64,000 bases of DNA, taken from the NCBI GenBank assembly GCA_030647415.1, contig JAUSKB010000026.1, positions 74,894-138,893 of the forward strand, in the 5' to 3' direction. The stretch is from a bacterium (GTDB taxonomy: Bacteria > Patescibacteriota > Minisyncoccia > UBA6257 > GWB1-50-10). Every line of letters begins with the position of its first letter. Within the stretch, counting starts at the first letter, position 1. Under the pieces are notes generated by a model. The model searched no databases and was not told where the DNA came from. It was given only the letters and a program-made list of their open reading frames with translations. A program made the position numbers and the translations under genes. Below are positions 926-57,012 of the stretch, in pieces.

Positions 926-954
926 GAACCCTGAAGATTTGCATACAATTTCAT

Positions 955-3417: not shown

Positions 3418-3491
3418 TGGTCGGCCCGGCAGGAATCGGACCTACGTTCAATGTGTATAAGACATTTGCTCTACCATTGAGCTACGGGCCG
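3418..3491 (-). tRNA. tRNA-Ile (anticodon UAU), hand-folded
   Basis: Revcomp CGGCCCG TA GCTC AATGGTA GAGC A AATGT CTTATAC ACATT ... CGGGCCG A CCA: 7-bp acceptor, canonical D arm, 5-bp anticodon stem, loop CU-UAU-AC, CCA encoded. T-arm slightly atypical. Confidence 0.55.
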
Positions 3492-4144
3492 AATTTTTCC
3501 CGAACAGCTTTTAATCCCTGAAGTATCTTCTCAGCAACTCTAGCATTGCTTATTTTAATAGTACAGGTTCCATGGCCAAACGTGCCACGATTTATTGATT
3601 GTGAAGAATTTTTTTTGATATAGGGCTTCGTGAACTGCTCTCTCGGCAATTTAAGCGCGTGAGACCAATATGCTATCTCTGATTCTATATTCATATCACT
3701 GTAAAGATGCAGGTGTACGCGTATTTTTTCTTTCTCCAAATTAAGACAATGTGTTGTCCAATAGATAAAAAACTTCGGCACTGCAGGGTCGGTATTTGCA
3801 ACTTCCAGTTCCGAAACCCTCGTTTTTGAACCTTCTCCCCAGTAAAGGAAGAGTCCGGCTATGTACAAGTCTCTTTTCGAAAACGGGAAGATTTCATCTT
3901 TTTGAGACTCGTAAACTACTTGTAGCCGTAGTTCTTTTTTTCTAAACATCGTCTCACGGTATCGCTCAATACGAACTTCATTCCAATCGCGAAGAGCCCT
4001 GACCCGCTCCTTTGAGAGCGGGAGGCCACAAAGCCAGTAACTTAAGGTGCTTTTACTTACCCCTAGTTCTTTCTTGATCTGGCTATAGCTTTTTCCCTCT
4101 TTTCGCAAAGCTAATGCTCTCTGTTTGTCTTTTACTCGAGTCAT
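3482..4144 (-). CDS. HTH-domain protein with a degenerate LAGLIDADG-like motif (possible free-standing homing-endonuclease-like gene) in an AT-rich islet between two tRNAs
   Basis: 220 aa; N-terminal HTH (RKEGKSYSQIKKELGVSKSTLSYWL); motif DLYIAGLFLYWGEGSK resembles LAGLIDADG; local GC is clearly lower than surrounding genes. Confidence 0.35.
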   Translation of the reverse strand: MTRVKDKQRALALRKEGKSYSQIKKELGVSKSTLSYWLCGLPLSKERVRALRDWNEVRIERYRETMFRKKELRLQVVYESQKDEIFPFSKRDLYIAGLFLYWGEGSKTRVSELEVANTDPAVPKFFIYWTTHCLNLEKEKIRVHLHLYSDMNIESEIAYWSHALKLPREQFTKPYIKKNSSQSINRGTFGHGTCTIKISNARVAEKILQGLKAVREKFGP

Positions 4145-4228
4145 GAACAGTGTTTATATCATACGTTATTCACAGGTTCATTTTATCACATTTGCATAAT
4201 AAAAAGCTGTGTATAGAGTAATGCAATA

Positions 4229-4302
4229 GGGCGCTTAGCTCAGCTGGTTAGAGCGACTCGTTTACACCGAGTAGGTCGGGGGTTCGAATCCCTCAGCGCC
4301 CA
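4229..4302 (+). tRNA. tRNA-Val (anticodon UAC)
   Basis: GGGCGCT TA GCTC AGCTGGTTA GAGC G ACTCG TTTACAC CGAGT ... GGTTCGAATCC ... AGCGCCC A; a terminator-like hairpin follows at 4306-4329. Confidence 0.85.
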
Positions 4303-4469
4303 CAAGAAGCCCCGCCGTAGTGGGGCTTCGCGGTTGGGTGCTGGAGCGAGGCGATTGCTCGCCTCGCGTTCGGGATTCGAACGCCGGAGCTTGTCCCGAG
4401 GAGCACCAAGGGACGCGAGGCGGTGGCCAGCCCGAGGAGCGCGACGGCGCGACGAGAGGAGAGGCAGAA

Positions 4470-10926: not shown

Positions 10927-10940
10927 AAAAACCCAAAAAA

Positions 10941-10980
10941 TTCTCATTCTAACCCCGCCATGGCGGGGTTAGAATGAGAA
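10941..10980. terminator. perfect 19-bp-stem hairpin TTCTCATTCTAACCCCGCC-AT-GGCGGGGTTAGAATGAGAA
   Basis: Perfect palindrome directly after the glyA stop codon. Confidence 0.6.
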
Positions 10981-11027
10981 TTTTCCGCGCCTGTACACAG
11001 CGCGCCGGTCCGAATACCATTACCATC

Positions 11028-18146: not shown

Positions 18147-18215
18147 GGAGTACGTGTGTGCCGAGATGGAGAAACAGTTCTATTAAAGCTGAAAATGAGG
18201 TACCATGCAATTAAT

Positions 18216-18316
18216 CCTGTTAGAAGTTTACATACACATAGGACTGGTTGTAGGCGTGTCGGTGCCAGCACTTCCCTGTGGATATCACAAGTGTGTGTGG
18301 GTAAACTTCTAACAGG
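18216..18316. repeat. Family A palindromic element, copy A3
   Basis: CCTGTTAGAAGTTTACATACACAT ... GTGTGTGGGTAAACTTCTAACAGG. Confidence 0.8.
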
Positions 18317-18376
18317 TCGTTCGACTCTGAGAGTCTCGGACTCGAAGAGATAAACCCGCCACATAAAACCTAACCA

Positions 18377-19706
18377 ATGTCCCACTTGCAACGACTTTCA
18401 CCAAGTATATTCCGCGCCTATGACATCCGCGGGGAGTACCCCCGTGAGGTAAACGCCTATGTGGTAGAGACCGTCGCGGCGGCAATTGGCAGCTTGTTCC
18501 CGCCGGGACCCATGATTGTCGCGCACGACGGCCGCACCAGCTCGCCGGCGCTCGCATTCGCGGTGCTTCGCGGGCTTGCCTCGGTCCGCTCGCGGGCAAG
18601 GCTCATTGACCTCGGCACTACCACGACGCCGATGTTCTATTTTTTTGTCGAGCGCCTAAAGGCCGCGGGCGGCATTATGGTGACCGCATCGCACAACCCG
18701 AAGACTATGAATGGCCTGAAGGTGGTCGGGGCGCACGCCGTTATGATTCCCGGTACTGAACTTGCGGCGTTGGTCCATAAAAAATCCCATGCTCAAAACG
18801 CGTAACTATGCAGGCGAGTATGCCTTGTTCCTCCGCACCTTTCTCGCTCCCGCCCGCCCGCTCCGGGTCGTCTTCGATTTCTCGAACGGTCCTGCGGGCA
18901 TAATCGTCCCCGACGTGGTCCGGAGCGAACCGAACCTCACCGCGTTTTTCGTTGACCGGGCGCTCTCGGGAAACTTCCCGGGACACGGACCAAACCCACT
19001 CGCCGGCGCCGGTCTCCTACACCTCCATACGGAGGTTCTTGCCCGGCACGCGAACCTGGGGCTCATCTTCGACGCGGACGGCGACCGGGTCTTCGTTGTG
19101 GACGAGCGTGGCCGGTGGGTGCCACCCCACCTCGTGGCACACCTCCTTGCGCGGAGGGCGGCAACGCCCTTCGTATTCGATACCCGGACGGCGCTCGCAC
19201 TCCGGTACGCGGGTCTTTTCGAACCCGCGGCGGCAATTCTCTCCCCAGTCGGCTCCGTCTACATAAAGGAACGGATGCGGGCGAGTGGGGCGGGGTTCGG
19301 CGCCGAGTATTCCGGCCACTACTACTTCAAGGAGTTTCTCTCCGTGGATTCGGGCATCCTCGCCGCCGTGAACGTCCTGAATGCCGTCTCCCGTCTTCCC
19401 TACTCGCTCGCGGAGTTCGTCGACCTTGCCCCCCGCGACGTCCGGTTCGAGGAGCGGAATATGCCCACGAAGAAGCCACGCGTCACCGTCGCTGCGCTCA
19501 CGAGCGCGCTCCGGCCGGGCGCGCGACGCGTCACGCCCGCCGCCCGGATGATAGGCGTCCAAGACGGCATGGTCATCGAGGCGGATGCATGGTTCGCCAC
19601 GGTCCGCCCCTCGAACACCGAGCCATTGGTCCGCGTCTGCGTCGGTAGCATCGAACCGCGCATCACCAAGGAAAAGCGCGTGGTGCTCGCTGCGTTTTCG
19701 GTATAG
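18377..19706 (+). CDS. phosphomannomutase/phosphoglucomutase, interrupted by a +1 frameshift at an A6 run (ORFs 18377-18805 and 18762-19706); possible pseudogene or sequencing error
   Basis: N-terminal part carries the active-site loop TASHNP; C-terminal part matches PGM/PMM domains III-IV; 142+314 aa equals a normal PMM length; the frames meet at CATAAAAAATCC (18776-18787). Confidence 0.65.
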
Positions 19707-20407: not shown

Positions 20408-20420
20408 GAAAAAGATTCAC

Positions 20421-20523
20421 CCTGTTAGAAGTTTACAGACACTCATTGAGTGTGTAGTGTAGCGTGTTATCTAAAACAACATGTGTAACATGAACACAGC
20501 GTGCGCGTAAACTTCTAACAGGG
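20421..20523. repeat. Family A palindromic element, copy A4, with conserved outer flanks TAAGAAAAAGATTCACCCTG... and ...CAGGGTGAAAGAAAAAGGAGGG
   Basis: The same outer flanks occur at copy A6. Confidence 0.85.
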
Positions 20524-20613
20524 TGAAAGAAAAAGGAGGGGAGGAGGGTTTAAAAAATGAGATATAAATGATGGAGATACTAGAAACCAGCATATATGCT
20601 GGTGTTTTTTACT

Positions 20614-24490: not shown

Positions 24491-24934
24491 ATGCTATTCC
24501 GCACCACATGGAGAGCCTACCTGCGACGCATTCGAGCATCGAGCGACGCCACAAAGCGGCGATGGATTGCCGTCGTGGGATTGGGCTCGGGAGGACTCGT
24601 CATCGCCCTCTGGGTCATCTACCTCTCCTCCACGCTGCCCGCCCGACTGGACAGTCGTTCGGGCGGGCCCACCCGGACGAATACGCCTCCGCTCGCGACC
24701 ACAACGGCGTCTGAATCGCCCCAGGAGCGAAGGGGGGATGTGTTTACGAACGGCGTCCGAGGCATCCGGGATATGATGGCAAAACAATGGCAGGGCGCAC
24801 GAAACACTATCGACAGTTCCTGGCAATCGCTGGGGGCGCTTATCACCGAGGGAAACGAATTCTCGGTGACGGGAACCACCACGCCCGCTTTGCCGGAATC
24901 GAGTGAGTCGAGCGAGCCACCGCACACACCATGA
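24491..24934 (+). CDS. hypothetical membrane protein
   Basis: 147 aa with one TM helix; overlaps the gyrA start by 4 nt. Confidence 0.4.
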
Positions 24935-27876
24935 CCACTGCAGAACCAAAGAAAACGCCCGGCGGCTCCATCGAGCCCCGCGAGATTGTGGACGAGCTCC
25001 GGCAGTCCTACCTATCGTACGCCATGTCGGTTATCGTCTCGCGCGCCATCCCGGACGTCCGTGACGGCTTGAAACCGGTGCAACGGCGCATCCTCTGGGC
25101 GATGTGGGACACCGGACTCACCCACAGCGCGAAGTTCAAAAAGTCCGCGAATGTGGTCGGCGAGGTGCTCGGCAAGTACCACCCGCACGGCGACGTTGCG
25201 GTCTACGACACCATGGCGCGTATGGCGCAGGACTTCTCGCTCCGCGCACCGCTCGTCGACGGCCAGGGAAATTGGGGGTGTTTTACTAAAGATACAAAAG
25301 TAAAACTCGCCGACGGTCGAAACGCGAGCTTTAGTGAACTCGTAGAAGAACACCGCCAGGGCAAGAAAAACTATACCTTTGCCGTTAATTCGGCTGGGCT
25401 CATTTCCATCGCGGAAATAAAAAATCCGCGCCTCACAAAAAAGAATGCAGAGCTCGTCAGGGTGATTTTGGACAATGGCGAGAAGATTCGTTGCACGCCG
25501 AATCACCGCTTTATGTTAAAAGACGGCTCCTACAAAGAGGCACACTACCTCACAAACGGGAATAGTCTTATGCCCCTATACGAGAAGTTGTCCACAAAAG
25601 AGGGCCGATTAAACAGCGACCCACGCCCGGTTTTATATGAACTAAATAAAAACCATAAAGTTGTTAGGGTTGAAAAGTTAGCGGAGCAGGAGGATGTTTA
25701 TGATTTAACGATTGATAAATATCATAATTTTGCGCTCGCGGCTGGTGTCTTTGTGCACAATTCGATCGACGGCGACAGCCCGGCGGCAATGCGTTATACT
25801 GAGGCTAGGCTTACAAAAGTCGCCGAGGAGCTCTTGACGGACATCGAGAAGGAGACGGTCGACTGGGGACCAAACTACGACAACTCCCGCGTGGAGCCGC
25901 TCGTCCTGCCGGGGAAGCTCCCGAACCTCATTGTGAACGGCGCGGTCGGCATCGCGGTCGGTATGGCAACCTCCATCCCGCCGCACAACCTCGGCGAGGT
26001 TATAGACGCCATCGCGTACCTTGCCGAGCACGGGGATGCCACGATTGAGGAGCTTATGCAGTTCATCCCGGGTCCCGACTTCCCGACGGGCGGCGTAATC
26101 TACGACACGCGGGCGATCGCCGAAGCCTACCGGACCGGCCGCGGCGCCATCGTCATGCGCGCCGTCGCCGTCATCGAGGAGCGGACGGCGCGAGGGCACC
26201 AGATCGTCGTCACCGAAATTCCCTACCAGGTGAACAAGTCGGACCTCGTCACCTCCATCGCCGAGCTCGTCACGGAGAAGCGAGTGGAGGGCATCCGGGA
26301 CCTCCGCGACGAATCCGATCGCGATGGCCTGCGAATCGTCATCGAGCTGAAAAGCGACGCGGCGCCGCAAAAGATTTTAAATCAGCTCTACAAGTACACC
26401 GAGCTCCAGAAGAGTTTCCACTCAAACCTCCTCGCATTGACCGGCGGACTCCAGCCGGAGGTGCTCTCCCTGAAGGATATCCTCGCCGCATACCTCGACC
26501 ACCGGAAGCTGGTCGTGAAGCGGCGAACAGAGTTTGACCTCCGAAAGGCGACGGAGCGGGCACATATCCTCGAGGGGCTCGTGAAAGCCTTGGACCACAT
26601 CGACCGGATCATCGAGACCATCAAGAAGTCCAAGGACCGCGAGGATGCCCAGCGGAACCTCATCGCGAAGTTCAAGTTCTCGGAGCTCCAGGCGAACGCC
26701 ATCCTCGAAATGAAGCTCGCCGCGCTCGCGGCGCTCGAACGCAAAAAGCTCGAAGATGAACTTACGGAAAAGCGGAATATCATCGAGGAGCTCACTGCGC
26801 TCCTCAAGAACCCGAAGAAGATGCTGGGGCTCATCGTCACGGAGCTCGGCAATCTCAAGGCCGCCTTCCCGAGCGAGCGGCGCACGAAGGTGGTTCCGCA
26901 CGGGCTCACGGAGTTCCGCGAGGAGGACCTGGTGCCGCAGGAGGAGGCAATCGTCACGCTCTCGGTGGACGGCTACATCAAACGGATGCCGCCCGATACC
27001 TTCCGGGCGCAACGGCGCGGCGGGAAGGGGCTCATCGGGTTCGATTTGAAGGACGAGGACCATATCCGACAGCTCATGGCGGCACGAACCCACGATAACT
27101 GCCTCTTTTTCACGGACCGGGGGAAGGTTTTCCAGACCAAGGTGTTCGAGATACCCGCCGCGGAGCGGGCGGCTAAAGGCAAACTCGTGCACAACTTCCT
27201 CGAAGTCCCACCGAACGAGCATATCACGGCGATGGTCGCCTACGGCGGATCGTCGAGCGGGTACCTCACCATGGTGACGCAGGGCGGAACCATCAAGAAA
27301 ACGCCGCTCAAGGACTTTGTGAGCGTCCGGCGGACGGGCATTATCGCCCTCAGGCTCCAGCCGAACGACATTCTTGAGTGGGCCCAGCTCTCCTCCGGCG
27401 GCGACGAGATGCTCCTCGTGACCTCCGCCGGTCAGGCGATCCGGTTCCGTGAAAAGGATGTCCGTCCAATGAGCCGCACCGCGGGCGGCACGCGCGCAAT
27501 CCGCCTGAAGCGAAAGGACCAGGTCGCCGGCGTCGGCATCATACCCAAGGAGGCCGGCGCCGCCGACCGGAAGGGGCTCCGCGTGGTCGCCGTCATGGCC
27601 CGCGGGTTCGCGAAGCAGACGCCGCTCTCGGATTACAAGGTACAGCACCGCGGCGGCGGCGGCATCAAGACCGCGAAGGTGACGGAGAAAACAGGGCCGG
27701 TGATCGCCGCGGCGATCGTCGGACCGGAGACGGAGGTTGTGCTCGCCTTCTCGAAAAAAGGCCAGGCATTGAAAACACCGCTCTCGAACGTCCGCATCGC
27801 GGGTCGCGCGACACAGGGCGTCCGCATTATGAACGTCGAGGCGGATGATGCGCTGATTGGGGTACTCTGTCTGTAG
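24931..27876 (+). CDS. gyrA: DNA gyrase subunit A, containing a mini-intein
   Basis: 981 aa; conserved GyrA blocks ([15 protein letters not shown]-terminal beta-pinwheel repeats); 161-aa insertion between GNWG and SIDGD. Confidence 0.95.
25279..25761 (+). mobile_element. mini-intein (161 aa, no homing-endonuclease domain) within gyrA
   Basis: Begins Cys ([13 protein letters not shown], block A), TPNH block B, ends VFVHN followed by Ser+1; DNA is markedly AT-rich relative to the flanking gyrA sequence. Confidence 0.8.
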
Positions 27877-27918
27877 GTAACAAACAACCTACGACACACA
27901 ACTAACAACCTATTTATC

Positions 27919-28019
27919 CTGTTAGAAGTTTACAAATAATCATTTTCCTATGAATTTGATGGTTATATTCAAAACCAAAACTATGCAGGAATACAAATTT
28001 TGCGTAAACTTCTAACAGG
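27919..28019. repeat. Family A palindromic element, copy A5; the right end CTAACAGG is immediately followed by the ATG at 28020
   Basis: CCTGTTAGAAGTTTACAAATAAT ... TTGCGTAAACTTCTAACAGG-ATGAACCTC. Confidence 0.85.
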
Positions 28020-29324
28020 ATGAACCTCACAAAGAAACAGCTCATCATCCTCGGCGGTATCGTCCTTGTAGTCATCATTCTGGTGCTCATGGGGCTCGGT
28101 ATCATCCCGGGACTGAAGACTGGCCCGGTCACCATGAAACCGGTTTCGCTCACCGTATGGGGCGTAGAGGACGCCGTACAGGAGCTGCAACCCGCGGTGC
28201 AATCGTTCGCCAGGAACCACCCCGGTGCCACCGTCACCTACTGGCAGTTTACCGACACCGAGACGTACCACACCACCCTCCTCGAGGCGCTCGCCGCGGG
28301 CACGGGACCGGATATCTTCGCCATACGGAACACCGAGGTGATGCGCCATGCCTCGAAGCTCGTCGCAATGCCGAAAGAGCGGCTCTCGCTCCTCACTCTC
28401 CGAAACACGTTCGCCCCCGTGGTGGAGCGTGATTTTGTGGTAAACGGCGGGGTCGTTGCGCTGCCGCTTTCCATAGACACGCTCTCACTCATCTATAATC
28501 GGGACCACTTCAACGAGGCGGGCATCGTTTCTGCTCCCGCCACCTGGGACGACCTCGTCGCCATTGCGCCGCGGCTTTCGGTCGTTGACGACTCGCGCCG
28601 GGTCACTCGCGCTTCCATAGCGCTTGGCGGTTCGGGTAGTACCATACCGCGCGTCAGCGACATTATTTCGGCATTGATGCTTCAGGGTGGCATCGTACCC
28701 GTCGGGCCCGACTGGGGCGGCGCCGGTTTCGCAACCCGCGCAGGATATGACGCGGTGAACTTCTACCTGCAGTTTTCGAACACCGGAAGCCCGCTCTACA
28801 CCTGGAATGAGGGGATGCCGAATGCTGTGGATGCGTTCGCACAAGGACGGGTCGCTATGATTATCGACTACGCCCGCGCACTGCCGGACATCCGGGAGCG
28901 AAACCCGCTCATGAACTTCGCCGTCGCACCACTCCCCCAGCAGAAGGGGGCGGAGCGGTCAAAGACCATGGCCTCCTACTGGGGCTATACGGTTTCCCGC
29001 CAATCGAAGCAGGCCCGGCTCGCGTGGGACTTCATCGTGGAAACAGCAACGAACCCGCAGGTGGTCAGTGCATACTTGAATGCTTCAAAACGCCCGCCGG
29101 CGATACCGAAATTCATCGAAGCGTACCGCGACAATCCCAACCTCGCCGTATTCGCCCAGCAAACGCTCACCGCCGATTCCTGGCCGATGCCGAACCGGGA
29201 CCTGGTAGGGGGCATATTCTCCGACATGGTGACGACGGTGCTTGAGAATCGGGCGAGCGTCGAAACGGCCGTAGGCCGCGCGCAGAGCGATATTTCGCGA
29301 CTCATCGGGTCGCGGCCGCGGTAA
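28020..29324 (+). CDS. extracellular solute-binding protein (ABC transporter, family 1), membrane-anchored
   Basis: 434 aa; N-terminal TM anchor, SBP_bac_1-like fold; starts MNL, identical first 9 nt to the gene at 54068. Confidence 0.65.
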   Translation: MNLTKKQLIILGGIVLVVIILVLMGLGIIPGLKTGPVTMKPVSLTVWGVEDAVQELQPAVQSFARNHPGATVTYWQFTDTETYHTTLLEALAAGTGPDIFAIRNTEVMRHASKLVAMPKERLSLLTLRNTFAPVVERDFVVNGGVVALPLSIDTLSLIYNRDHFNEAGIVSAPATWDDLVAIAPRLSVVDDSRRVTRASIALGGSGSTIPRVSDIISALMLQGGIVPVGPDWGGAGFATRAGYDAVNFYLQFSNTGSPLYTWNEGMPNAVDAFAQGRVAMIIDYARALPDIRERNPLMNFAVAPLPQQKGAERSKTMASYWGYTVSRQSKQARLAWDFIVETATNPQVVSAYLNASKRPPAIPKFIEAYRDNPNLAVFAQQTLTADSWPMPNRDLVGGIFSDMVTTVLENRASVETAVGRAQSDISRLIGSRPR

Positions 29325-29333
29325 GCCATTGGG

Positions 29334-29861
29334 ATGTTATACTTACCATTGATGAAATCCTATTTTGCGGTCTCTCTGCTTTTAGTTGGACTGGCTATTG
29401 CCATACCCGTATTCGCCGGCGTCCAAACTGCTAACGCACAAGGGAGCTGCGGCGGCGTGGGGCAACGTTGCTGCCAACCTGCCGAAGCACCCCACCAGTG
29501 CATTACCGCTCTCGTTTGCAGTAACTTCACAAGCCCCATCTGCGAGACCGGAATATGCGCGTGCAGGGGAGTCGCGCCGCCCCCACCAAACCCGAGCACC
29601 ATCACACTCATAAACCCCCTAAGCGGCACGTCCGACGTGCGCGGTCTCATCGAGCGGTTTGTCACCATCCTCCGCGATTTTGCGACGCCCATTGCGGTCC
29701 TCATGATTCTCTTTGGGGCGTTCCGAATCCTCACTGCCGCTGGGGACCCCGCGAAGTTCGAGACGGGGAAAAAGATACTCCTGTACACCGCCATAGGGTA
29801 TGCTATAATCTTTGTCGGGTGGGGAATCACCTCGATTATCGAGAGTCTGCTCTCTTCGTGA
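29334..29861 (+). CDS. VirB2/TrbC-like pilin-type protein with an N-terminal 8-Cys domain
   Basis: Signal peptide, Cys-rich domain, then two hydrophobic helices separated by AAGDPAKFETGKK. Confidence 0.45.
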   Translation: MLYLPLMKSYFAVSLLLVGLAIAIPVFAGVQTANAQGSCGGVGQRCCQPAEAPHQCITALVCSNFTSPICETGICACRGVAPPPPNPSTITLINPLSGTSDVRGLIERFVTILRDFATPIAVLMILFGAFRILTAAGDPAKFETGKKILLYTAIGYAIIFVGWGITSIIESLLSS

Positions 29862-32141: not shown

Positions 32142-32154
32142 GAAAAAGGATTTA

Positions 32155-32255
32155 CCCTGTTAGAGTTTTACAAACACTTTAGTTATATGCATTTGGTTGG
32201 TACCGCATACCACCGGTATCAAGCATAGTAGTGTGCGTGTAAAACTCTAACAGGG
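32155..32255. repeat. Family A palindromic element, copy A6
   Basis: TAAGAAAAAGGATTTACCCTGTTAGAGTTTTACAAACAC ... GTGTGCGTGTAAAACTCTAACAGGGTAAAAGAAAAAGGAGGG. Confidence 0.85.
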
Positions 32256-32277
32256 TAAAAGAAAAAGGAGGGATTTA

Positions 32278-32379
32278 CCCTGTTAGAAATTTACATACAC
32301 CCATACCACATGATGTCGTCTGTCTCCTGAAACTGCACCGTATTCATGAATACGGTGTGCGTGTAAATTTCTAATAGGG
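32278..32379. repeat. Family A palindromic element, copy A7 (tandem with A6)
   Basis: CCCTGTTAGAAATTTACATACAC ... GTGTGCGTGTAAATTTCTAATAGGG. Confidence 0.85.
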
Positions 32380-35467: not shown

Positions 35468-35515
35468 TTAGTATACTCCGCTGCTAAAATTATCCAACGG
35501 CCGTTCGGTTATTTT
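35468..35515. repeat. hairpin repeat GCTGCTAAAATTATCCAACGGCCGTTCGGTTATTTTAGCAAC (copy 2, inverted relative to copy 1)
   Basis: Near-exact reverse complement of the repeat at 34716-34758. Confidence 0.75.
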
Positions 35516-35707
35516 AGCAACTGTCATACTCACCCCTCCGTGTGGTTTCGCGGAGTGTGTATGTAGTGTGCGGCCTCGTGCACCCGGCGCGGTGGTTTCC
35601 GCTTTGACCACAGGGTATGCTGAACTTCAGGCGATACAATGCCCGAGTGGTGAAACTAGCATTCACCCCGCGTCATTTCTACGCTAGACTAATTGTGTAT
35701 AAAGGGG

Positions 35708-38006: not shown

Positions 38007-38107
38007 CCCTGTAAGAGTTTTACATACACGCTTTCATTTTGAACATCTATTGCCCTGTAATACGAATGGAACACAGTGAATGGCGTGCTGGTAAAACCCT
38101 AACAAGG
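38007..38107. repeat. Family A palindromic element, degenerate copy A8
   Basis: CCCTGTAAGAGTTTTACATACAC ... GGTAAAACCCTAACAAGG; the left end lies 12 nt from the integrase-remnant start. Confidence 0.7.
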
Positions 38108-39206: not shown

Positions 39207-41282
39207 ATGGAACAACATATTCAGACACTGCATCGAAAAAAGTTTGCGACCACTCTCTCGGGCGACGAGCTCACACTCGAGGTGTCCGAGCTCGCGAAAC
39301 AGGCGAACGGGGCGGTCATCGCGACGCACGGCGAAACCGTCGTACTCGCGACGGCGACACTGGGCCCCTCGAACCGCGTGACGGACTACTTCCCGCTCAC
39401 CGTGGACTACGAGGAGCGCTTCTACGCGACCGGGAAGATACTCGGTAGCCGGTTCGTCCGGCGCGAGGGGCGCCCCTCGGAGGAGGGAACGCTCTCGGCA
39501 CGCCTCATCGACCGGACCATCCGCCCGCTCTTCGACCAACGGCTGCGGTCCGAGGTGCATGTAGTTGCAACCATCCTCGCGTACGACGGGACGCACGATC
39601 CAGACCCGGTCGCGCTTATCGCCGCCTCAGCGGCGCTCGCCATCTCGGATATCCCGTGGGGCGGTCCGGTCGCAGGCATCAGGACCGAGCGTCGCGGCGC
39701 AAACGGGGAGGTTGAATTCATCTCGTTCTTCGCCGGCACCTCGGACCGCGTCAATATGATTGAGTTCGAAGGAAACGAACGACTCGAGGCCGAGGCGCTC
39801 GAGCTATTTCAAGCCGCGCAGACGGAAATTAGGCGGCTCACCTCGTTCCAGCGCGAGATGGTGGCGGCGGTCGGGAAGCCGAAAACAAGCCCCACGCGTG
39901 CCGAGCCAAACCCCGAATTCGCGGCGAAGGTCCGCACGCTCATCACCACGCGATTGAATGAGGCTTATACAAAGCAGTCGAATGAGGCGTTGCATGATGC
40001 TTCCGGGCAAATCCGGATGAAACTCGTCGAGGAGGGCGAGTCTGCGGAAAACCTTGCCGAGCTTCCCGAGATCATCGAAGCGGAGACCGATGCCTACGTG
40101 CATCGCCGCGCAGTCACCGATGGCGTTCGGATGGACGGCCGCGCATTCGACGAAATCCGACCGCTCGGGGCGGAAGTGGGGCTCCTCGCCCGCACGCACG
40201 GCAGCGGCCTCTTCATGCGGGGCGATACACAGGTCCTCGCAGTCGTGACGCTCGCCTCACCGGAAGGCGAGCAGCTCGTGGAGTCTATGGAGGGGAAGAC
40301 GAAACGGCGCTTTATGCTCCACTACAACTTCCCGAGCTTTGCGACCGGCGAACCCGGCCGTTCCCGGAGCCCGGGCAGGCGGGAAATCGGACATGGCGCC
40401 TTGGCGCATAAGGCCCTGAAGTGGGTACTGCCTCCGAAGGAGACGTTCCCCTACACCATCCGCATCGTCTGCGAGACGCTCTCATCGAACGGCTCCTCAT
40501 CGATGGCATCAACCTGCGCGGGCTGCCTCGCGCTCATGGATGCCGGGGTTCCCATTCGGAAACCGGTCGCCGGCATCGCGATGGGTCTCATGACCCACGG
40601 CGACGACTACCGCGTCTTGACCGACATCCAGGGCCTCGAAGACCATTTCGGCGGTATGGACTTTAAGGTCGCCGGCACCATGGACGGTGTAACCGCCATC
40701 CAACTCGACATGAAAGTGGACGGACTCACGGAGCCGATGTTTGAGGAGGCGCTCGCAAAGGCTCATGACGCGCGACTCAAGATTCTCGAGGTCATGCGCG
40801 CCACGCTTCCCGCGCCGCGAGCGGCACTCTCGCCCTACGCGCCCACCATCCTCACGATGCCCATCGACCCCAGCCGCATCGGCGAGGTCATCGGTCCCGG
40901 CGGTAAGGTCATCAACGGCATCATCGCGGCCGCGGGTGGAAACATCACCATCGACATCGAGGATGAGGGGAAGGTGTACGTGGGCGGCACCGACCGCGCG
41001 ATGGTCGAGTGGGCATTTCAGGAAATCAAAAATATCCTTCGCGAATTCACGATCGGGGAGGTGGTGGAGGGCGACGTGGTGAAGATGCTCGACTTCGGCG
41101 CGATTATCGACCTCGGAGCCGGTCGAGACGGGATGCTCCATGTATCCGAGCTGCGCGAGGGATTCGTGAAACAGGTAACCGATGTCGTGAATATGGGCGA
41201 CCACGTGCGTGTGAAAATCATCCGCGCGGACCCGGACGGCCGCATCGGGCTCTCGTTGAAGCAGATGGGGAAGGGGGAGTAG
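39207..41282 (+). CDS. pnp: polynucleotide phosphorylase
   Basis: 691 aa; two RNase PH domains, KH and S1 domains. Confidence 0.95.
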   Translation: MEQHIQTLHRKKFATTLSGDELTLEVSELAKQANGAVIATHGETVVLATATLGPSNRVTDYFPLTVDYEERFYATGKILGSRFVRREGRPSEEGTLSARLIDRTIRPLFDQRLRSEVHVVATILAYDGTHDPDPVALIAASAALAISDIPWGGPVAGIRTERRGANGEVEFISFFAGTSDRVNMIEFEGNERLEAEALELFQAAQTEIRRLTSFQREMVAAVGKPKTSPTRAEPNPEFAAKVRTLITTRLNEAYTKQSNEALHDASGQIRMKLVEEGESAENLAELPEIIEAETDAYVHRRAVTDGVRMDGRAFDEIRPLGAEVGLLARTHGSGLFMRGDTQVLAVVTLASPEGEQLVESMEGKTKRRFMLHYNFPSFATGEPGRSRSPGRREIGHGALAHKALKWVLPPKETFPYTIRIVCETLSSNGSSSMASTCAGCLALMDAGVPIRKPVAGIAMGLMTHGDDYRVLTDIQGLEDHFGGMDFKVAGTMDGVTAIQLDMKVDGLTEPMFEEALAKAHDARLKILEVMRATLPAPRAALSPYAPTILTMPIDPSRIGEVIGPGGKVINGIIAAAGGNITIDIEDEGKVYVGGTDRAMVEWAFQEIKNILREFTIGEVVEGDVVKMLDFGAIIDLGAGRDGMLHVSELREGFVKQVTDVVNMGDHVRVKIIRADPDGRIGLSLKQMGKGE

Positions 41283-41295
41283 GCAATGGTGTATA

Positions 41296-41506
41296 CCCTG
41301 TTAGAGTTTTACAAATACACCTGTACAAGCTGAATTATTTGTCACCTCATACCAAGCTGTGCACAACCCAACGGCGTGCCCCGTGAGAGATTTACGCGCA
41401 AACTACTTGCTGGGAAATGGTTTTGTTATAATCAGTAAGTGAAATTCGATACTAGGAAATGGTCTGTAAATCTCTAACGGGGCGTGCAAGTAAAACTCTA
41501 ACAGGG
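41296..41506. repeat. Family A palindromic element, copy A9 (outer, 211 bp), carrying a nested copy
   Basis: Left CCCTGTTAGAGTTTTACAAATACAC at 41296; right GCAAGTAAAACTCTAACAGGGT at 41487-41506. Confidence 0.75.
41389..41482. repeat. Family A variant copy A10, nested inside A9
   Basis: CCCCGTGAGAGATTTACG ... TGTAAATCTCTAACGGGG. Confidence 0.7.
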
Positions 41507-41519
41507 TAAACTTAAGTAT

Positions 41520-42797
41520 ATGAATGAACCGTCGAATCCCCAACCGACATCCTGGTCGCCACAGCCACCGCGTCCGTCCGTAGCCGTAGGCGGGGGGGGG
41601 CCTCGTCCGCCCCAACCGACCTTCGGCGGGACAAACTCCACCCTCGGCACGGGGGAGGGGGAGGTGCCGCTCGCGAAACCGCCCGCCTCGTCGGTGAGTG
41701 TCCGAACTATGGCGTCGGACCTCGCCTCGTTGCAGTCAACCGGCGGGACACAGCCGCGACCCTACGCGCCCTCGCCGGCTGGTGGAGCCGGAGCGACTCC
41801 ACGGCCCATGTCCCCGCCGAACGTGCCGCCCGCGTCGCCCATGCCTCCAAGCGCGCCCCGTCCATTCAATGCGCCTTCCACAGCGCCGCAACCGCCGGTA
41901 CCACCGCCCACTGGACGGCCGGGCGTCCCGAATATGCCCCAGACCCCACAACGCGGACCGGCGCCTGCAAAGAGCTCTAAGGGATTCCTCGTCGGTACCA
42001 TTATTGTTGTCGCCGTCATCGGGCTCGGCGCGCTCGGCTACTTCGTCGTCTACCCCCTCATCGCGGAACCTGCTGTTTCCGAGCCGCCACCACCCGCGCC
42101 CCCGGAACCGGCCCCCGTGCCAGAGCCGCCGGCACTGATTATCACCGAACCAACATCAACGCCGGCCACACCAACATCAACGCCCTCCGATGCACTCCCT
42201 ACCCCGTTGCACACATCACTCTTCAGAGCGCCGGCTGACCTAACCGAGGAGCTCATACTCGTATCTTCGGACCTAACGAGCTTCCGCTCCCAGATTCCGT
42301 TTGATACCGCAGAGGTTTCCATTCTTCGAGAAATCAATGTCGCCCTGCCAAGCGCGCCTTCACAGCCGCTGCTCGGAACCGGTGGGGTGAACACAGATCC
42401 AATCACCCTCGAGCAACTTCTGCCGTTCGTCGCGCCTGGACTCTTCGACCGCGACACAATGCGCGCCTTCGGGAACGACGTAACGGTGTTCACCTATACC
42501 GACTCGAAGGGGACCTGGCCCGGATTCGCCGTCCGCGCAACAAATAATGTCCCGCTTGCCGCGGTGCAGATGAAGGTAAACCAGACCCTTGAACAGGCAG
42601 TTGCCTTGAAACAGTTCTTCCTTACCAACCCAGGAACGGCGGGGGCATGGAAGTCGGGTTCCACCGGGAACGTCCAGAACCGGTACCAGACCTTTTCACT
42701 TCCTGGTGCGGCGTTGAACTACGCCTGGACCGACCGGACGCTCGTCGTCGCCACCTCGTACGACACTTTCCAGACTGCGCTCGGACGGATAAAATAG
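41520..42797 (+). CDS. Pro-rich single-pass membrane protein, hypothetical
   Basis: 425 aa; N-terminal P/S/A-rich region (contains a G9 run), one TM helix, C-terminal globular domain. Confidence 0.55.
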   Translation: MNEPSNPQPTSWSPQPPRPSVAVGGGGPRPPQPTFGGTNSTLGTGEGEVPLAKPPASSVSVRTMASDLASLQSTGGTQPRPYAPSPAGGAGATPRPMSPPNVPPASPMPPSAPRPFNAPSTAPQPPVPPPTGRPGVPNMPQTPQRGPAPAKSSKGFLVGTIIVVAVIGLGALGYFVVYPLIAEPAVSEPPPPAPPEPAPVPEPPALIITEPTSTPATPTSTPSDALPTPLHTSLFRAPADLTEELILVSSDLTSFRSQIPFDTAEVSILREINVALPSAPSQPLLGTGGVNTDPITLEQLLPFVAPGLFDRDTMRAFGNDVTVFTYTDSKGTWPGFAVRATNNVPLAAVQMKVNQTLEQAVALKQFFLTNPGTAGAWKSGSTGNVQNRYQTFSLPGAALNYAWTDRTLVVATSYDTFQTALGRIK

Positions 42798-44906: not shown

Positions 44907-45623
44907 TTACTTTTTACCTTTTACTACCGCAATCGGCTTCGCGCCGGGGAGCATCAACAACCCGGAACCTTCCATGAGAATCTCCTGGTAGCGCGGATTG
45001 AATTGCCGAATCGTCTCGGGGTCGATGCCGTACCGCGCGGCGATAGTTGTGAGTGAATCGCCAGCTATGACCGCGTAGCGCACGCCGGAAACCGGCAGTA
45101 TGGTAAGTTCAGCGCCGGGACGGATCGTGCGCCCCACGGACAGGTTCGCCCACCGGATCGTCTCCGGCGTTATGCCGAACCGGGCGGCGAGCGCGGCGAG
45201 CGTGTCACCTCGCTGTACACGGTACCGGATGGTCCCGTCCGCTACGGGAATGGTTACGGTAAACGGCATCGCGGCTGCAGTAAGGTCGCTCTCCGTCACC
45301 GTCCCCAGGTCGGGGACAGCGCCTGCCTGTCCGGCCCGCCCAGATGACTCGGTCGGACGGGTAGGCAGCGCTGACAATCCCACCGCACCCGCCCGGATGA
45401 CTCGGTCGGACGGGTCATCGAACGGATTTATCTCGCCTGTCTGCGCAGGCGGGTTTGGAAGTGTTGTTATATCTGAAAATACACCCTCCCCGTCCGACCG
45501 AGTCATCCGGGCGGGCACGCCGTCGTTTTTGGACTCATCCACATAGCTGCTCACAATCTTGTCTGCGGAGACCCCAGAAGCGCCAATAAGGCCTGTAATT
45601 CCCAGGAGAATGAGCGACCACAT
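44907..45623 (-). CDS. LysM-domain protein (two LysM repeats); linker region carries three copies of the 28-bp dispersed repeat
   Basis: YRVQRGDTLAALAARFGI and YAVIAGDSLTTIAARYGI; N-terminal TM anchor. Confidence 0.8.
   Translation of the reverse strand: MWSLILLGITGLIGASGVSADKIVSSYVDESKNDGVPARMTRSDGEGVFSDITTLPNPPAQTGEINPFDDPSDRVIRAGAVGLSALPTRPTESSGRAGQAGAVPDLGTVTESDLTAAAMPFTVTIPVADGTIRYRVQRGDTLAALAARFGITPETIRWANLSVGRTIRPGAELTILPVSGVRYAVIAGDSLTTIAARYGIDPETIRQFNPRYQEILMEGSGLLMLPGAKPIAVVKGKK
45336..45363. repeat. 28-bp dispersed repeat GCCCGCCC(A/G)GATGACTCGGTCGGACGGG, copy 1 (inside the LysM gene)
   Basis: Further copies at 45389-45416 (same orientation), 45490-45518 (inverted), 47774-47801 and 54641-54672 (variant). 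Confidence 0.85.
45389..45416. repeat. 28-bp dispersed repeat, copy 2 (inside the LysM gene)
   Basis: Exact core match. Confidence 0.85.
45490..45518. repeat. 28-bp dispersed repeat, copy 3, inverted (inside the LysM gene)
   Basis: CCCCGTCCGACCGAGTCATCCGGGCGGGC. Confidence 0.85.
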
Positions 45624-45770: not shown

Positions 45771-45895
45771 TACACAAATGTCTAACAGGGTACACCCTGT
45801 TAGAGTTTTGCACATACTCCGTTATATTCCATATGGATGTTTCAGAAAGACCAATTTCTTCTAGTAAAAAGATGATCTGCAAAACTCTAACAGGG
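45771..45895. repeat. Family A palindromic element, copy A11, plus an extra solo right-half immediately upstream
   Basis: CACAAATGTCTAACAGGGT-ACACCCTGTTAGAGTTTTGCACA ... TGCAAAACTCTAACAGGGTAA-ATG (ksgA start). Confidence 0.8.
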
Positions 45896-48128: not shown

Positions 48129-48170
48129 AAGACTTGTCATTCTGGACGGCCGTCCAGAATGACAAGTCTT
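48129..48170. repeat. perfect 42-bp palindrome without spacer (AAGACTTGTCATTCTGGACGG|CCGTCCAGAATGACAAGTCTT)
   Basis: 21-bp arms, exact reverse complements; within an AT-rich noncoding stretch (about 47990-48350). Confidence 0.85.
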
Positions 48171-53883: not shown

Positions 53884-53967
53884 TCTAATCTCAACAAGCA
53901 GAGGCAAGCTGAGGCCGAGCGGCAGCGGAAAGCCGGTGGAGCAACACCAAATCCATAACCCATTTAT

Positions 53968-54067
53968 CCTGTTAGAAGTTTACAGATAGTTATTTATATG
54001 GAAAATATTATTGTTATGCAAAATAAAATTGTGAAGTGGCGGTGTTTGCGCGTAAACTTCTAACAGG
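53968..54067. repeat. Family A palindromic element, copy A12; the right end is followed directly by the ATG at 54068
   Basis: CCTGTTAGAAGTTTACAGATAG ... TTGCGCGTAAACTTCTAACAGG-ATGAACCTC. Confidence 0.85.
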
Positions 54068-55072
54068 ATGAACCTCTCGAATATAACTTTTGAGCTGCTC
54101 TCCGAACGGTACGAGGAGATACCGGAACGGTTTCGGGAGCTCCTCGAGTCACCCGGCACAAAAACAACACTCGTGCGCATCGGGGCGCAACACGCGCTTG
54201 ACCACGAACGGCAAACACTCCTTGAGGCGCTGGTCGGTCTTGTCTTCACCGGTTTCCTCTCCCCGGATGACCTCGCGGGGGAGTTTGTCGACCGCCTCTT
54301 CCTGAACTTCGTCCACGCCCGCGCGCTCGCCCGCGAGGTGGACGAGACCTTCTTCGCGCCGCACCGCCGCGACCTCGTTCGCGTCTACAACCCCGTGGGC
54401 GGGGTACCGCAGGGCCCAACCGTCCGGAGTGCGGAACGACCTATGATTGGATTGCCTTCACAAGTAGGAAAGACGATTTCACTTGAATCCATCGGCGCTT
54501 CAGGCGGTAGGGAACAAAAGCTTCCCATTAACGAGGTTGCGGCGCCGCTCGTGATTCTCGGCTCCAGCTCCCCCACCCTCCGCAAACCGATTATTCCGAA
54601 CCGCCCGCCGGAACGCCTGTTTGCCAGCCAGGCAGGCCTGCCTACCCATCCGACCGAGTTATCCGGGCGAGCCGGACAAACGGTTTCGGAGAAGCCGGTG
54701 TACCACTCACCCTTTTCCTTCCGGTTCCCGTTCCGCTCACCGCAGGCGGCGCGTACCCCGCTGGGCGACTCCACGGGACCGACCGCGACCGTCCGATTGC
54801 CCGGCAGTGCGGCACCAGCGCAGAAGAAGGATGGGCTTCATATTGTCCACTATGCGGAAACACGCGGGAGACTCGGCCCGCCGCTATCAACCGGAAAGGG
54901 GGGGGTAGTGAACCTGGACCAGCTGGGGGCGCAGCAAAGAAAAGAGACAAGAGAAAAAGGACAAGAGACGCCCATCGCACCGACAACCGACAACCGACAA
55001 CCGACAACCATCCCGAAACCACAGCCGAAGATCGATGGGAACACCATAGACCTCCGGGCAAATAAACTCTAA
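54068..55072 (+). CDS. hypothetical Pro-rich protein containing an in-frame variant of the 28-bp repeat
   Basis: 334 aa; starts MNL, identical 5' end to the 28020 gene; PTHPTELSGRAGQT is encoded by the repeat at 54641-54672. Confidence 0.5.
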   Translation: MNLSNITFELLSERYEEIPERFRELLESPGTKTTLVRIGAQHALDHERQTLLEALVGLVFTGFLSPDDLAGEFVDRLFLNFVHARALAREVDETFFAPHRRDLVRVYNPVGGVPQGPTVRSAERPMIGLPSQVGKTISLESIGASGGREQKLPINEVAAPLVILGSSSPTLRKPIIPNRPPERLFASQAGLPTHPTELSGRAGQTVSEKPVYHSPFSFRFPFRSPQAARTPLGDSTGPTATVRLPGSAAPAQKKDGLHIVHYAETRGRLGPPLSTGKGGVVNLDQLGAQQRKETREKGQETPIAPTTDNRQPTTIPKPQPKIDGNTIDLRANKL

Positions 55073-55125
55073 ATCCGAAACTCTAAATCCTAAACAAGCA
55101 CGAAATTCTAAACTCTAAACCACTG
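55066..55125. repeat. Family C repeat (CTCTAAATCCGAAAC(C/T)CTAAATCCTAAACAA...), forward arm C1
   Basis: Inverted partner at 55516-55580; together they bracket the four-helix-bundle gene. Confidence 0.8.
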
Positions 55126-55129
55126 CATT

Positions 55130-55495
55130 ATGGAACCGAGCGTGGGCTTGAAACGGTATGATTTGGAGGCGCGAACGCTTCAATTTACAAGGGATGTCAT
55201 TTCGTTCGTTTCCGCCCTTCCCCGGAGTATTGCCAATATTGAAATCATCAAACAGCTCATCCGGGCGACTGGTTCGGTGGGAGCGAATTATATAGAAGCG
55301 AATGAGTCCGTAAGCAGAAAGGACTTTCTCTTACGAGTTAAGATTTCCAAAAAAGAGTCGCGAGAGGCAATATACTGGTTGGAGCTCGTACAATGCTCAA
55401 ATGAGCAATGTGAAGTTAGGAGGCGTGAATTGATCCGAGAAGCGACCGAGCTCATGAAAATTCTCGGTTCAATCGTCGAAAAATCATCTCGGTGA
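55130..55495 (+). CDS. four-helix-bundle protein (TIGR02436 / 23S rRNA intervening-sequence protein; Avd-like)
   Basis: 121 aa; RATGSVGANYIEANESVSRKDFLLRVKISKKESREAIYWLEL matches the family core; lower GC than neighbours. Confidence 0.7.
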   Translation: MEPSVGLKRYDLEARTLQFTRDVISFVSALPRSIANIEIIKQLIRATGSVGANYIEANESVSRKDFLLRVKISKKESREAIYWLELVQCSNEQCEVRRRELIREATELMKILGSIVEKSSR

Positions 55496-55515
55496 TATTG
55501 CATTCATGATTTTTC

Positions 55516-55580
55516 CCTGTTTCGGATTTGAGATTTGGAATTTGTTTAGGGTTTAGGGTTTCGAATTTAGAATTTATCTG
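55516..55580. repeat. Family C repeat, reverse arm C2 (GTTTAGGGTTTAGGGTTTCGAATTTAGAATTT)
   Basis: Reverse complement of the C1 motifs. Confidence 0.8.
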
Positions 55581-55581
55581 T

Positions 55582-56089: not shown

Positions 56090-56228
56090 GCTCTAAATCC
56101 GAAACCCTAAATCCTAAACAAATTCGAAATTCCAAACACACTCATAAATGATGATGAAACATGATGCCATTTCGAATTTCGTGCTTGGAATTTGTTTAGA
56201 GTTTCGATATTAGGATTTAGAATTTCTA
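56090..56228. repeat. Family C palindromic element C3 (forward and reverse arms, no cargo)
   Basis: GCTCTAAATCCGAAACCCTAAATCCTAAACAAATTCGAAATTCCAA ... TTGGAATTTGTTTAGAGTTTCGATATTAGGATTTAGAATTTC. Confidence 0.8.
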
Positions 56229-56893
56229 TGGAAAAGGGTCTCCCCACACAATCATTTGTCGCCGTCAAAGAGGTTCGAAACGGCATCGTCCACCTGAAAG
56301 ACGGCGGCCTGCGCCAGCTCCTCATCGTCTCCGGCGTGAACTTCGACCTGAAGGCGGAGGAGGAGCAGGCACTTATTCTGAACACCTTCCAAAATTTCCT
56401 GAACACGCTCGACTTCACGATGCAGTGCTTCATCCATTCCCGGAAGGTGAATGTGGACACCTACCTGGACCGCATGCGCTCGCGGCAGCTCGAGGAACCG
56501 AATGAGCTCTTGAAGATCCAGATTGCCGAGTATATCGACTTCATCGCCGCGTTCGTGGACCAGAACGCCATCATATCAAAAACCTTCTTTGTGGTGGTCC
56601 CGTACGATCCGCCAGTGACGTCCGGAGCGGCGACCAAGGGCGTGCTTGGCTTCTTCAAGAAACGCGAGGCGGCGACGGTCATCGCGGACGAGGCGGCAAC
56701 GCTCCAGGAGCACTTGAAGCAGCTCGAACAGCGGGTGACACAGGCGACCGAGGGCCTCCTCCAGATCGGGCTACGGGCAGTCCGGCTCCGCGACGACGAG
56801 ACCATCGAGTTGTTCTACAACCTCTACAATCCGGAACTGGTCGAGAAGAAGGGGCTCGACATAGCAAAGCCAGACAAAGCCGGAAAATCCTAA
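56228..56893 (+). CDS. virB4: VirB4/ConE-family ATPase, N-terminal fragment (split gene)
   Basis: 222 aa; IVHLKDGGLRQLLIVSGVNFDLKAEEEQALILNTFQNFLNTLDFTMQ fits the CagE/TrbE/VirB4 N-terminal domain pattern; 222+587 aa equals a normal VirB4 length. Confidence 0.5.
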   Translation: MEKGLPTQSFVAVKEVRNGIVHLKDGGLRQLLIVSGVNFDLKAEEEQALILNTFQNFLNTLDFTMQCFIHSRKVNVDTYLDRMRSRQLEEPNELLKIQIAEYIDFIAAFVDQNAIISKTFFVVVPYDPPVTSGAATKGVLGFFKKREAATVIADEAATLQEHLKQLEQRVTQATEGLLQIGLRAVRLRDDETIELFYNLYNPELVEKKGLDIAKPDKAGKS

Positions 56894-57012
56894 GCACGAA
56901 ACCCTAAATCCTAAACAAACCCGAATGTTCCAAATCCGAAACGGTGCGCATGCGTTTGTGGTTTCGTGCTTCGATATTGTTTCGGATTTCGATATTAGAA
57001 TTTAGGATTTCT
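56893..57012. repeat. Family C palindromic element C4, lying between the two virB4 fragments
   Basis: AGCACGAAACCCTAAATCCTAAACAAACCCGAATGTTCCAAATCCGAAAC ... GTTTCGTGCTTCGATATTGTTTCGGATTTCGATATTAGAATTTAGGATTTCT. Confidence 0.8.

Follow-up and report, generated by a model that had tools for sequence, protein, structure and literature searches.

Nested insertion within a probable family of small non-autonomous transposons in a Patescibacteria lineage

The window, the whole 64-kb stretch of Patescibacteria DNA analysed here, contains a composite of inverted repeats at 41296–41506, between pnp and a downstream gene encoding 425 aa. The composite is delimited by its outer terminal inverted repeat (TIR) arms and by reconstruction, and has no assigned strand. 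It consists of two complete elements of a single repeat family (family A), one within the other, and both arm pairs lie where the initial annotation had put them. The outer arms (41291–41312 and 41490–41511) are 22 nt long and 95% complementary, and the inner arms (41378–41395 and 41466–41483) are 18 nt long and 94% complementary. On its left, the composite adjoins GCAATGGTGTATA (41283–41295, + strand), which in comparison with the related contigs L002, L005 and L006 equals the upstream half of a conserved −10-like box, TGGTGTATACT, before the downstream gene in these relatives. On its right, it adjoins TAAACTTAAGTAT (41507–41522, + strand), then the ATG (41520) of the 425-aa gene, with TAAACT as the remaining −10-like hexamer 7 nt before that ATG.

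Several other features occur in the window. The gyrA gene (24931–27876) carries an intein (Intein_splicing PF14890, residues 125–277), and phosphoglucomutase (18377–19706) is divided between two overlapping ORFs (18377–18805 with domain I, 18762–19706 with domains II–IV), reflecting a frameshift, a pseudogene or a sequencing error. At 3418–4303, a tRNA-Ile with the unusual anticodon TAT (− strand) abuts a low-GC3 ORF (3482–4144, − strand), followed by tRNA-Val; this ORF has an HTH_23 domain and a LAGLIDADG-like GLFLYWGEGSK motif, and judged by sequence the region looks like a homing-endonuclease-type insertion between tRNA genes. GC-rich 27–32-nt repeats (CCCGCCCGGATGACTCGGTCGGACGGG), inverted and up to 100% complementary, lie at 45334–45516 inside ORF 44907–45623 (− strand), while perfect or near-perfect palindromes with 23–25-nt arms were observed at 10937–10984, 48129–48170 and 35482–35519, the first of which separates the SHMT and FolD genes and resembles a bidirectional terminator. 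A second repeat family (55068–55571, 56092–56221 and 56885–57010) comprises inverted arms of 7-nt units, TCTAAAT / CCGAAAC / CCTAAAC (25 matches, 3.2 expected), and its arms are also matched in contig L126. One of its arm pairs encloses a ~507-bp block with an ORF (55130–55495) for a 23S rRNA-intervening-sequence protein (PF05635), and this block is absent from the orthologous contig L133.

Family A is strongly over-represented in the window. The end motif CCCTGTTAGAGTTTTAC (≤3 mismatches) occurs at 24 sites against 0.09 expected, a number reached in 0 of 100 shuffles, and all 24 (24/24) combine into 12 elements: 11 simple elements of 99–104 bp and a twelfth arm pair spanning 211 bp around one of them. 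Elements e1 (823–924) and e2 (954–1052) share a spacer with a remnant left arm (927–949) between them; e3 (18215–18317), like e1 and e2, is an arm pair without assigned strand, and e4 (20420–20523) was placed on the + strand by its asymmetry. Also unstranded, e5 (27917–28020) lies between gyrA and a solute-binding-protein (SBP) gene, whose ATG straddles the right end of the element. On the + strand, e6 (32155–32255), with an interior 68–77% identical to the copies in contigs L127 and L132, is separated by 22 nt from e7 (32278–32379, + strand), and e8 (38007–38107, + strand), with partly decayed arms, lies upstream of rpsO. The unstranded e10 (45795–45895) is 3 nt upstream of the ksgA ATG and is accompanied by a remnant right arm (45774–45790), and e11 (53967–54068, + strand) has the downstream ATG straddling its right end. 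Shared spacers are thus frequent (e1/e2 with a remnant, e6/e7, the nested e9, and e10 with a remnant).

Two of these elements, e4 (20408–20540) and e6 (32142–32277), each lie between copies of one and the same 9–10-bp direct repeat, AGAAAAAG(G/A)A. This repeat looks like a ribosome-binding region; e6 is not followed by any gene that it could serve, and the flanks of the L127 copies are similar. Element e8 sits exactly where synteny upstream of rpsO with L002 and L005 breaks, homology to L002 resumes at CTACAGTA right after it, and CTAC is repeated on both sides, outside a TTTA/TGAG shell. Solo, partly deleted arms adjoin complete copies both in the window (927–949 and 45774–45790) and in the metagenome contigs (L124 466–482, L128 1037–1053 and L132 2073–2089), often forming R-TNNA-L junctions; they are what is left of older copies after later insertions or deletions broke them up.

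A paired-arm pattern scan added 16 copies, found in 14 metagenome contigs, to the 12 of the window, and all 28 are 99–107 bp long. Their TIR is 17 bp (CCCTGTTAGArnTTTAC) and nearly always perfectly complementary, with 87% of cells paired over 26 positions across the 28 copies. Arm positions 2–17 are near-invariant except for positions 11–12 (AG, GT, AA or GA) and 16, while position 1 is C or T. At positions 1, 11, 12 and 16 the arms co-vary, changes occurring in both arms together (pair 11 is GC in 16 copies and AU in 11; pair 12 is UA in 12, AU in 10 and GC in 6, with none unpaired), and the covariation score of 0.223 compares with 0.145 in shuffles, 0 of 500 of which reach the observed value. 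Inside the 17-nt arms the two sides differ, with A[ATG]ACA (‘alpha’) on one side and [AG]CGCA (‘beta’) on the other, and position 19 is non-complementary in 23 of the 28 copies. The predicted stems are long and stable (−34 to −52 kcal/mol).

In contrast to these ends, the interiors have little in common beyond an AT-rich composition (41% GC vs 57.5% for the window). Their mean identity (0.572 vs 0.545 shuffled) makes the copies as dissimilar as shuffled sequence, with 5 of 378 interior pairs above the null maximum and none of these within the window; no interior k-mers were common to copies beyond chance relative to shuffles, and no conserved sequence or ORF was found in the interiors of the 28 copies. 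A promoter within the loop was considered and rejected: TGnTAnnnT-like motifs do occur at element centres, but no interior k-mer exceeds shuffles, and the best example, TGTTATAAT in the inner element e9in, falls on the ‘wrong’ strand once the element is oriented. For arms to stay perfect while interiors are randomised, lineages must be long-lived and filtered at every jump, or selection must act in place, or one arm must convert the other; perfect TIRs with randomised interiors and covariation fit a hairpin constraint at least as well as simple recognition of each end by a protein.

Scanning of viral contigs with the paired-arm pattern returned no match, BLAST against plasmids and phages gave nothing or chance-level matches, and a scan of genome contigs with CCTGTTAGANNTTTACA, a pattern too unspecific for this purpose, yielded single chance matches across unrelated phyla only. 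With Rfam 15 at gathering thresholds, the whole window produced two tRNAs only, and 41200–41600 had no match even at E ≤ 1.

Comparison with relatives revealed empty and filled sites. The PNPase of the window is 100% identical to an NCBI ‘MAG: bacterium’ protein, its remoter relatives being labelled Jorgensenbacteria/Paceibacterota, and contigs L002, L005 and L006 encode PNPases 83%, 76% and 74% identical to it, with rpsO–NYN–pnp synteny kept. In these three contigs neither the motif nor a comparable inverted repeat was found and e5–e10 are absent, and the orthologous regions downstream of pnp (PNPase 74–83% identical), the comparison suggested by the initial annotation, present short, element-free spacers. 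The distance from pnp to the next gene is 237 nt in the window vs ~23 nt (stop to ATG) in L002; the relatives’ spacers carry TGGTATACT / GTGTATACT / TTGTATACT a few bases before the ATG, for which the counterpart in the window is ATGGTGTATA[211 bp]TAAACTTAAGTATATG. For the outer element, length comparison with L005 and L006 favours a target duplication of +4 nt, while L002 allows 0.

Two closer metagenome relatives, L132 and L133, carry the family at sites other than those occupied in the window. The gyrA–SBP region of L132 is 82–88% identical to that of the window at the nucleotide level and lacks e5, with TTGTTATACTAGATTCATG in place, and the e5 site is also empty in L005; L132 has elements directly after the SBP gene, where the window retains an intact TGTTATACT box. 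A further site, empty in the window (55566–55581, + strand; AATTTATCTGTATGAA, continuing TTTTCAGG), is filled in L133. There the window is uninterrupted, CTGTATGAATTTTCAGG, with one TGAA (ATGAAT), and the filled allele of L133 reads CTGTA-TGAA-[TCCTG...CAGGA]-TGAA-TTTTCAAG, so this filled/empty pair shows a clean 4–6-bp target duplication. Taking L132 and L133 together, occupancy differs from the window at 3 of 3 comparable sites, and such differences between close relatives indicate recent activity. Copies in L121 and L128 are 90% identical over the whole element in unrelated flanks. Whole units of family A have therefore been copied to new places with duplication of a 4–6-bp target, and the sites they occupy differ among relatives.

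These observations bear on the suggestion that the repeats are non-mobile paired binding sites or RNA hairpins (operators, RNase III sites or terminators) that evolved in place, the nesting then being an overlap of sites. Copies in 5′ regions and short spacers, long stable stems of −34 to −52 kcal/mol and co-varying arms would suit such sites. Against them stand the insertion polymorphism, the target-site duplication (TSD) at a verified empty site and the 90%-identical copies in unrelated flanks, as well as the occupation of convergent, divergent and tandem gene spacers alike, the lack of Rfam matches at E ≤ 1 and the presence of truncated solo arms. An in-place regulatory origin of family A is largely refuted, and we consider it very improbable, although a host function on top of mobility may exist. 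The initial annotation’s view that nesting is hard to explain by conserved regulatory sites alone is borne out, as insertion polymorphism and duplicated targets contradict static palindromes.

The anatomy of the composite is in agreement with insertion. Taken by itself, the outer element is 41296–41378 plus 41487–41506 (103 bp), and its TIR, CCCTGTTAGAGTTTTAC at 41296–41312 with the complement at 41490–41506, has 0 mismatches to the consensus. The inner element e9in (41379–41482, − strand; 104 bp, with arms at 41379–41395 and 41466–41482) is flanked by one copy of CGTG on the left (41375–41378) and one on the right (41483–41486), neither assigned to a strand, and its duplication reads GCGTGC (41374–41379 and 41482–41487) once TIR position 1 is counted. 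Deleting e9in with one CGTG copy in silico restores a canonical 103-bp outer element, whose right subterminal, ACGGCGTGCAA|GTAAAAC, fits the family pattern (e4 ACAGCGTGCGC|GTAAAC, and also e6 and e7). The insertion point is not the apical loop of the outer element, as had been proposed, but lies in its right subterminal region, 3 nt inside the 17-nt right TIR. The subterminal asymmetry (left GCGCA = beta, right AGACC = alpha) places e9in in inverted orientation relative to the outer element, a structure that local duplication would not yield.

The inner element is a TIR variant, with C for T at arm position 4 compensated in both arms and GA at positions 11–12. The G at the TT position named in the initial annotation as the mark of this variant proved to be a single mismatch confined to one arm (CCCCGTGAGAG on the left, with the right arm reading CCCCGTTAGAG), and the distinct subfamily envisaged for it found no further member: C at TIR position 4 is unique to e9in among the 28 copies.

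An assembly artefact or a local tandem duplication could in principle mimic nesting, and assemblies do break at repeats, with elements at the ends of many Ga0209211 contigs and an identical tandem repeat at the end of L132. The composite is, however, 100% identical, base for base over 261 nt, in an independent Logan assembly of the same sample (L001) and hence is not a mis-assembly, while the inner element has a different TIR variant, interior and orientation from the outer one, so that neither is a duplicate of the other; an origin of this kind is scarcely credible. The orientation of interiors, which in e9in and the L133 copy departs from the majority, would also be expected of invertible promoter cassettes (invertons), in which the inverted repeats are recombinase sites flipping the ~65-bp interior, and inverted repeats around AT-rich DNA upstream of genes agree with such cassettes. 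Yet a 65-bp segment is very small for site-specific inversion, the 64 kb contain 12 copies beside essential housekeeping genes, the window ORFs yielded no recombinase, no conserved promoter motif occurs in the interiors, and the polymorphism between relatives is one of presence and absence rather than of flipping, making invertons extremely improbable. Element-in-element insertion by transposition is the best supported reading of 41296–41506: the inner element is complete and inverted, CGTG flanks it, the outer element is restored by its removal, and the mobility of the family is demonstrated independently, in line with the footprint of transposition or recombination claimed by the initial annotation.

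Across the family, direct 4-mers abutting both ends (4/4) occur in 6 of 28 copies vs 1.45 expected by permutation (P = 0.001), and five of these six give a 6-bp repeat once arm position 1 is counted in. Roughly half (about 14/28) instead have reverse-complementary flanks, RTTYA...TRAAY, with no direct repeat; the opposite polarity (TRAA...TTYA) was seen in 0 of 28, and TA is present on both sides in only 7 of 28. If TTYA...TRAA is counted as part of a longer form, a weak duplication signal appears at offset 4 (P = 0.003, from partial matches with one 4/4 case, e8). Palindromic flanks are predicted neither by fixed-stagger DDE insertion nor by recombination between copies, and inversion between copies was rejected as their source, since opposite polarity is 0/28. 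They may reflect carry-over of 4 nt from the donor, HUH-type insertion into a palindromic target, or transposition of a longer form.

Palindromic flanks also suit hairpin-based single-strand transposition (REPIN/RAYT or IS200/IS605-derived palindromic elements), in which a single-stranded hairpin would be cut and inserted beside TTYA by an HUH/Y1 enzyme with no target duplication. In roughly half of the copies TTYA stands on the left and TRAA on the right without a direct repeat, never in opposite polarity, the arms co-vary strongly around a conserved internal mismatch at position 19 (23/28 unpaired), the R-TNNA-L junctions (L132, e10) resemble circle or tandem junctions, and orientation is biased, as in about 11 of 13 cases the beta arm faces the downstream gene. 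Y1 transposition makes no direct repeats, though, and exact 4–6-bp direct repeats are present in six copies, including e9in and the site with the verified empty allele; moreover, individual arms, read from their sequence, are not palindromic REP hairpins, and no Y1_Tnp/RAYT domain was detected in the window or contigs. We therefore regard hairpin transposition as unlikely.

The tetranucleotides adjoining the elements nearly always fit T-N-N-A (TATA, TAAA, TGAA or their complements), and the sites hit are TATACT −10-like boxes and ATG-AAx gene starts. Genes in this lineage are commonly preceded by TGnTATACT, 6–8 nt before the ATG, and many start with ATG-AAx; this TGnTATACT box is the preferred landing site of family A. 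In six copies (e5, e11, L123b, L126, L131 and L133), the end of the element falls within or directly beside the ATG of the gene that follows. Convergent (e6/e7), divergent (e3, e8, e10) and tandem gene spacers are occupied alike, and the identified neighbours are all housekeeping or type IV secretion genes, core genes with copies at their boxes or starts including the pnp neighbour, gyrA–SBP, rpsO and ksgA in the window and SSB, PheS and GatA in relatives. Given how often spacers are co-occupied, the nested copy would be the extreme case of crowding into few permissive sites. Boxes of this type without a Shine–Dalgarno sequence lie 6–8 nt 5′ of the ATG at 29335–29357 in the window, at 6325–6347 in L002, at ~195–220 and ~12125–12145 in L005 and at ~735–757 in L132. 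Their recurrence without a Shine–Dalgarno sequence suggests that leaderless or near-leaderless transcripts may be common in the lineage.

We propose, with a probability of roughly 0.8, that family A is a family of non-autonomous DNA transposons (MITEs) of one Patescibacteria lineage; it is previously undescribed and is an ordinary kind of small non-autonomous transposon. Each copy has perfect 17-bp TIRs with short asymmetric subterminal motifs just inside them, enclosing ~60 bp of AT-rich filler that is unconstrained in sequence and constant in length. A transposase encoded elsewhere would recognise the TIRs in trans and would prefer T-N-N-A sites (TATA, TAAA, TGAA), which in a 58% GC genome would be mostly TATACT −10-like boxes and ATG-AAx starts, so that copies would pile up in very short spacers directly upstream of genes. 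The composite would have begun with one copy landing in the TATA(CT) box of the spacer downstream of pnp; a variant copy would then have inserted, in reverse orientation, into the right subterminal region of this earlier one, with (G)CGTG(C) as the duplicated target.

Domain searches of 60+ window ORFs (64 kb) and of 20 ORFs from the metagenome contigs (about 28 kb) detected neither a transposase nor a recombinase. ORF 3482–4144 (− strand), with transposase-like HTH matches, was rejected as a partner, as it looks like an HTH plus LAGLIDADG-type protein and lacks family A ends. A doubtful but not negligible possibility is that family A is moved by a bacterial piggyBac/IS1380-like enzyme, the excised product keeping 4-nt donor flanks as overhangs. 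If such carry-over is real, each new copy would have a donor-derived flank on one side and a target-derived flank on the other, which would explain the palindromic TTYA...TRAA shell beside clean 4–6-bp duplications, and the element could act as a ‘portable spacer’ that splits the −10 boxes and start-codon regions of essential genes non-lethally in a minimal CPR genome. The host may also have put the perfectly maintained, co-varying stem, with its fixed internal mismatch, to use as a hairpin signal in RNA or DNA.

Patescibacteria/CPR genomes are tiny and gene-dense and are usually regarded as poor in mobile DNA. One MITE-like family accounts here for about 2% of the 64-kb stretch, roughly one copy per 5 kb, and family A is notable mainly for this density in a very small genome and for landing in promoters and gene starts. 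It is a useful marker of strain-level variation, a likely cause of assembly breaks in the metagenome-assembled genomes of the lineage and a possible driver of promoter turnover in organisms whose gene regulation is almost unknown, and the nested copy shows directly that transposition into one and the same spacer happened more than once.

Among known systems, integron attC sites have R″(RYYYAAC)...R′(GTTRRRY) polarity and are found at cassette boundaries next to intI. Family A resembles them in its conserved structure and length around a variable centre and in imperfect inverted repeats with GTT/AAC triplets, but attC identity was rejected: the box polarity is reversed (GTTAGAG...CTCTAAC vs RYYYAAC...GTTRRRY), the window contains no integrase or cassette array, and the elements are flanked by core housekeeping functions. 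Duplication of TA of the IS630/Tc1-mariner type was likewise rejected, as the L133/window pair duplicates TGAA/ATGAAT.

IS1380/piggyBac elements have CC(C)...(G)GG ends, a TSD of the 4-bp class and a preference for T..A tetranucleotides such as TTAA. The CC...GG termini, 4-bp-class duplication and T..A targets of family A resemble these when compared by family properties alone, while its duplication, unlike theirs, may be 6 bp, and no IS1380/piggyBac-type transposase was found in the window or metagenome contigs. The affinity, for which the IS1380–piggyBac relationship was taken as used in PMC10813416, is a lead only. By analogy, piggyBac-type chemistry, with 4-nt donor flanks as 5′ overhangs, could explain the TTYA/TRAA shells in many copies.

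REPINs are REP doublets that form hairpins and are mobilised by RAYT, each REP being a small palindrome after a conserved tetranucleotide, and they have no TSD. They share with family A the ~100-bp unit, two conserved inverted ends around a less conserved spacer of fixed length, the long hairpin and intergenic abundance, and many family A copies also lack a direct repeat. Unlike REPINs, the family A arm CCCTGTTAGAGTTTTAC has no internal palindrome and at least 6 copies have a TSD; no RAYT (Y1 transposase) gene was seen among the window ORFs.

Correia/NEMIS of Neisseria and RUP of Streptococcus pneumoniae are bacterial MITEs that duplicate TA and whose copies share internal sequence. Family A copies, in contrast, have only their ends and length in common, duplicate 4–6 bp and reside in Patescibacteria, for which no description of MITEs was found in the searchable literature. 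Both groups nevertheless consist of non-coding elements of about 100–150 bp with long TIRs, high copy number and, for family A in 6 of 28 copies, short TSDs, located in intergenic regions near genes and capable of forming a long hairpin in transcripts, and Correia/NEMIS and RUP, like family A, insert beside or into one another.
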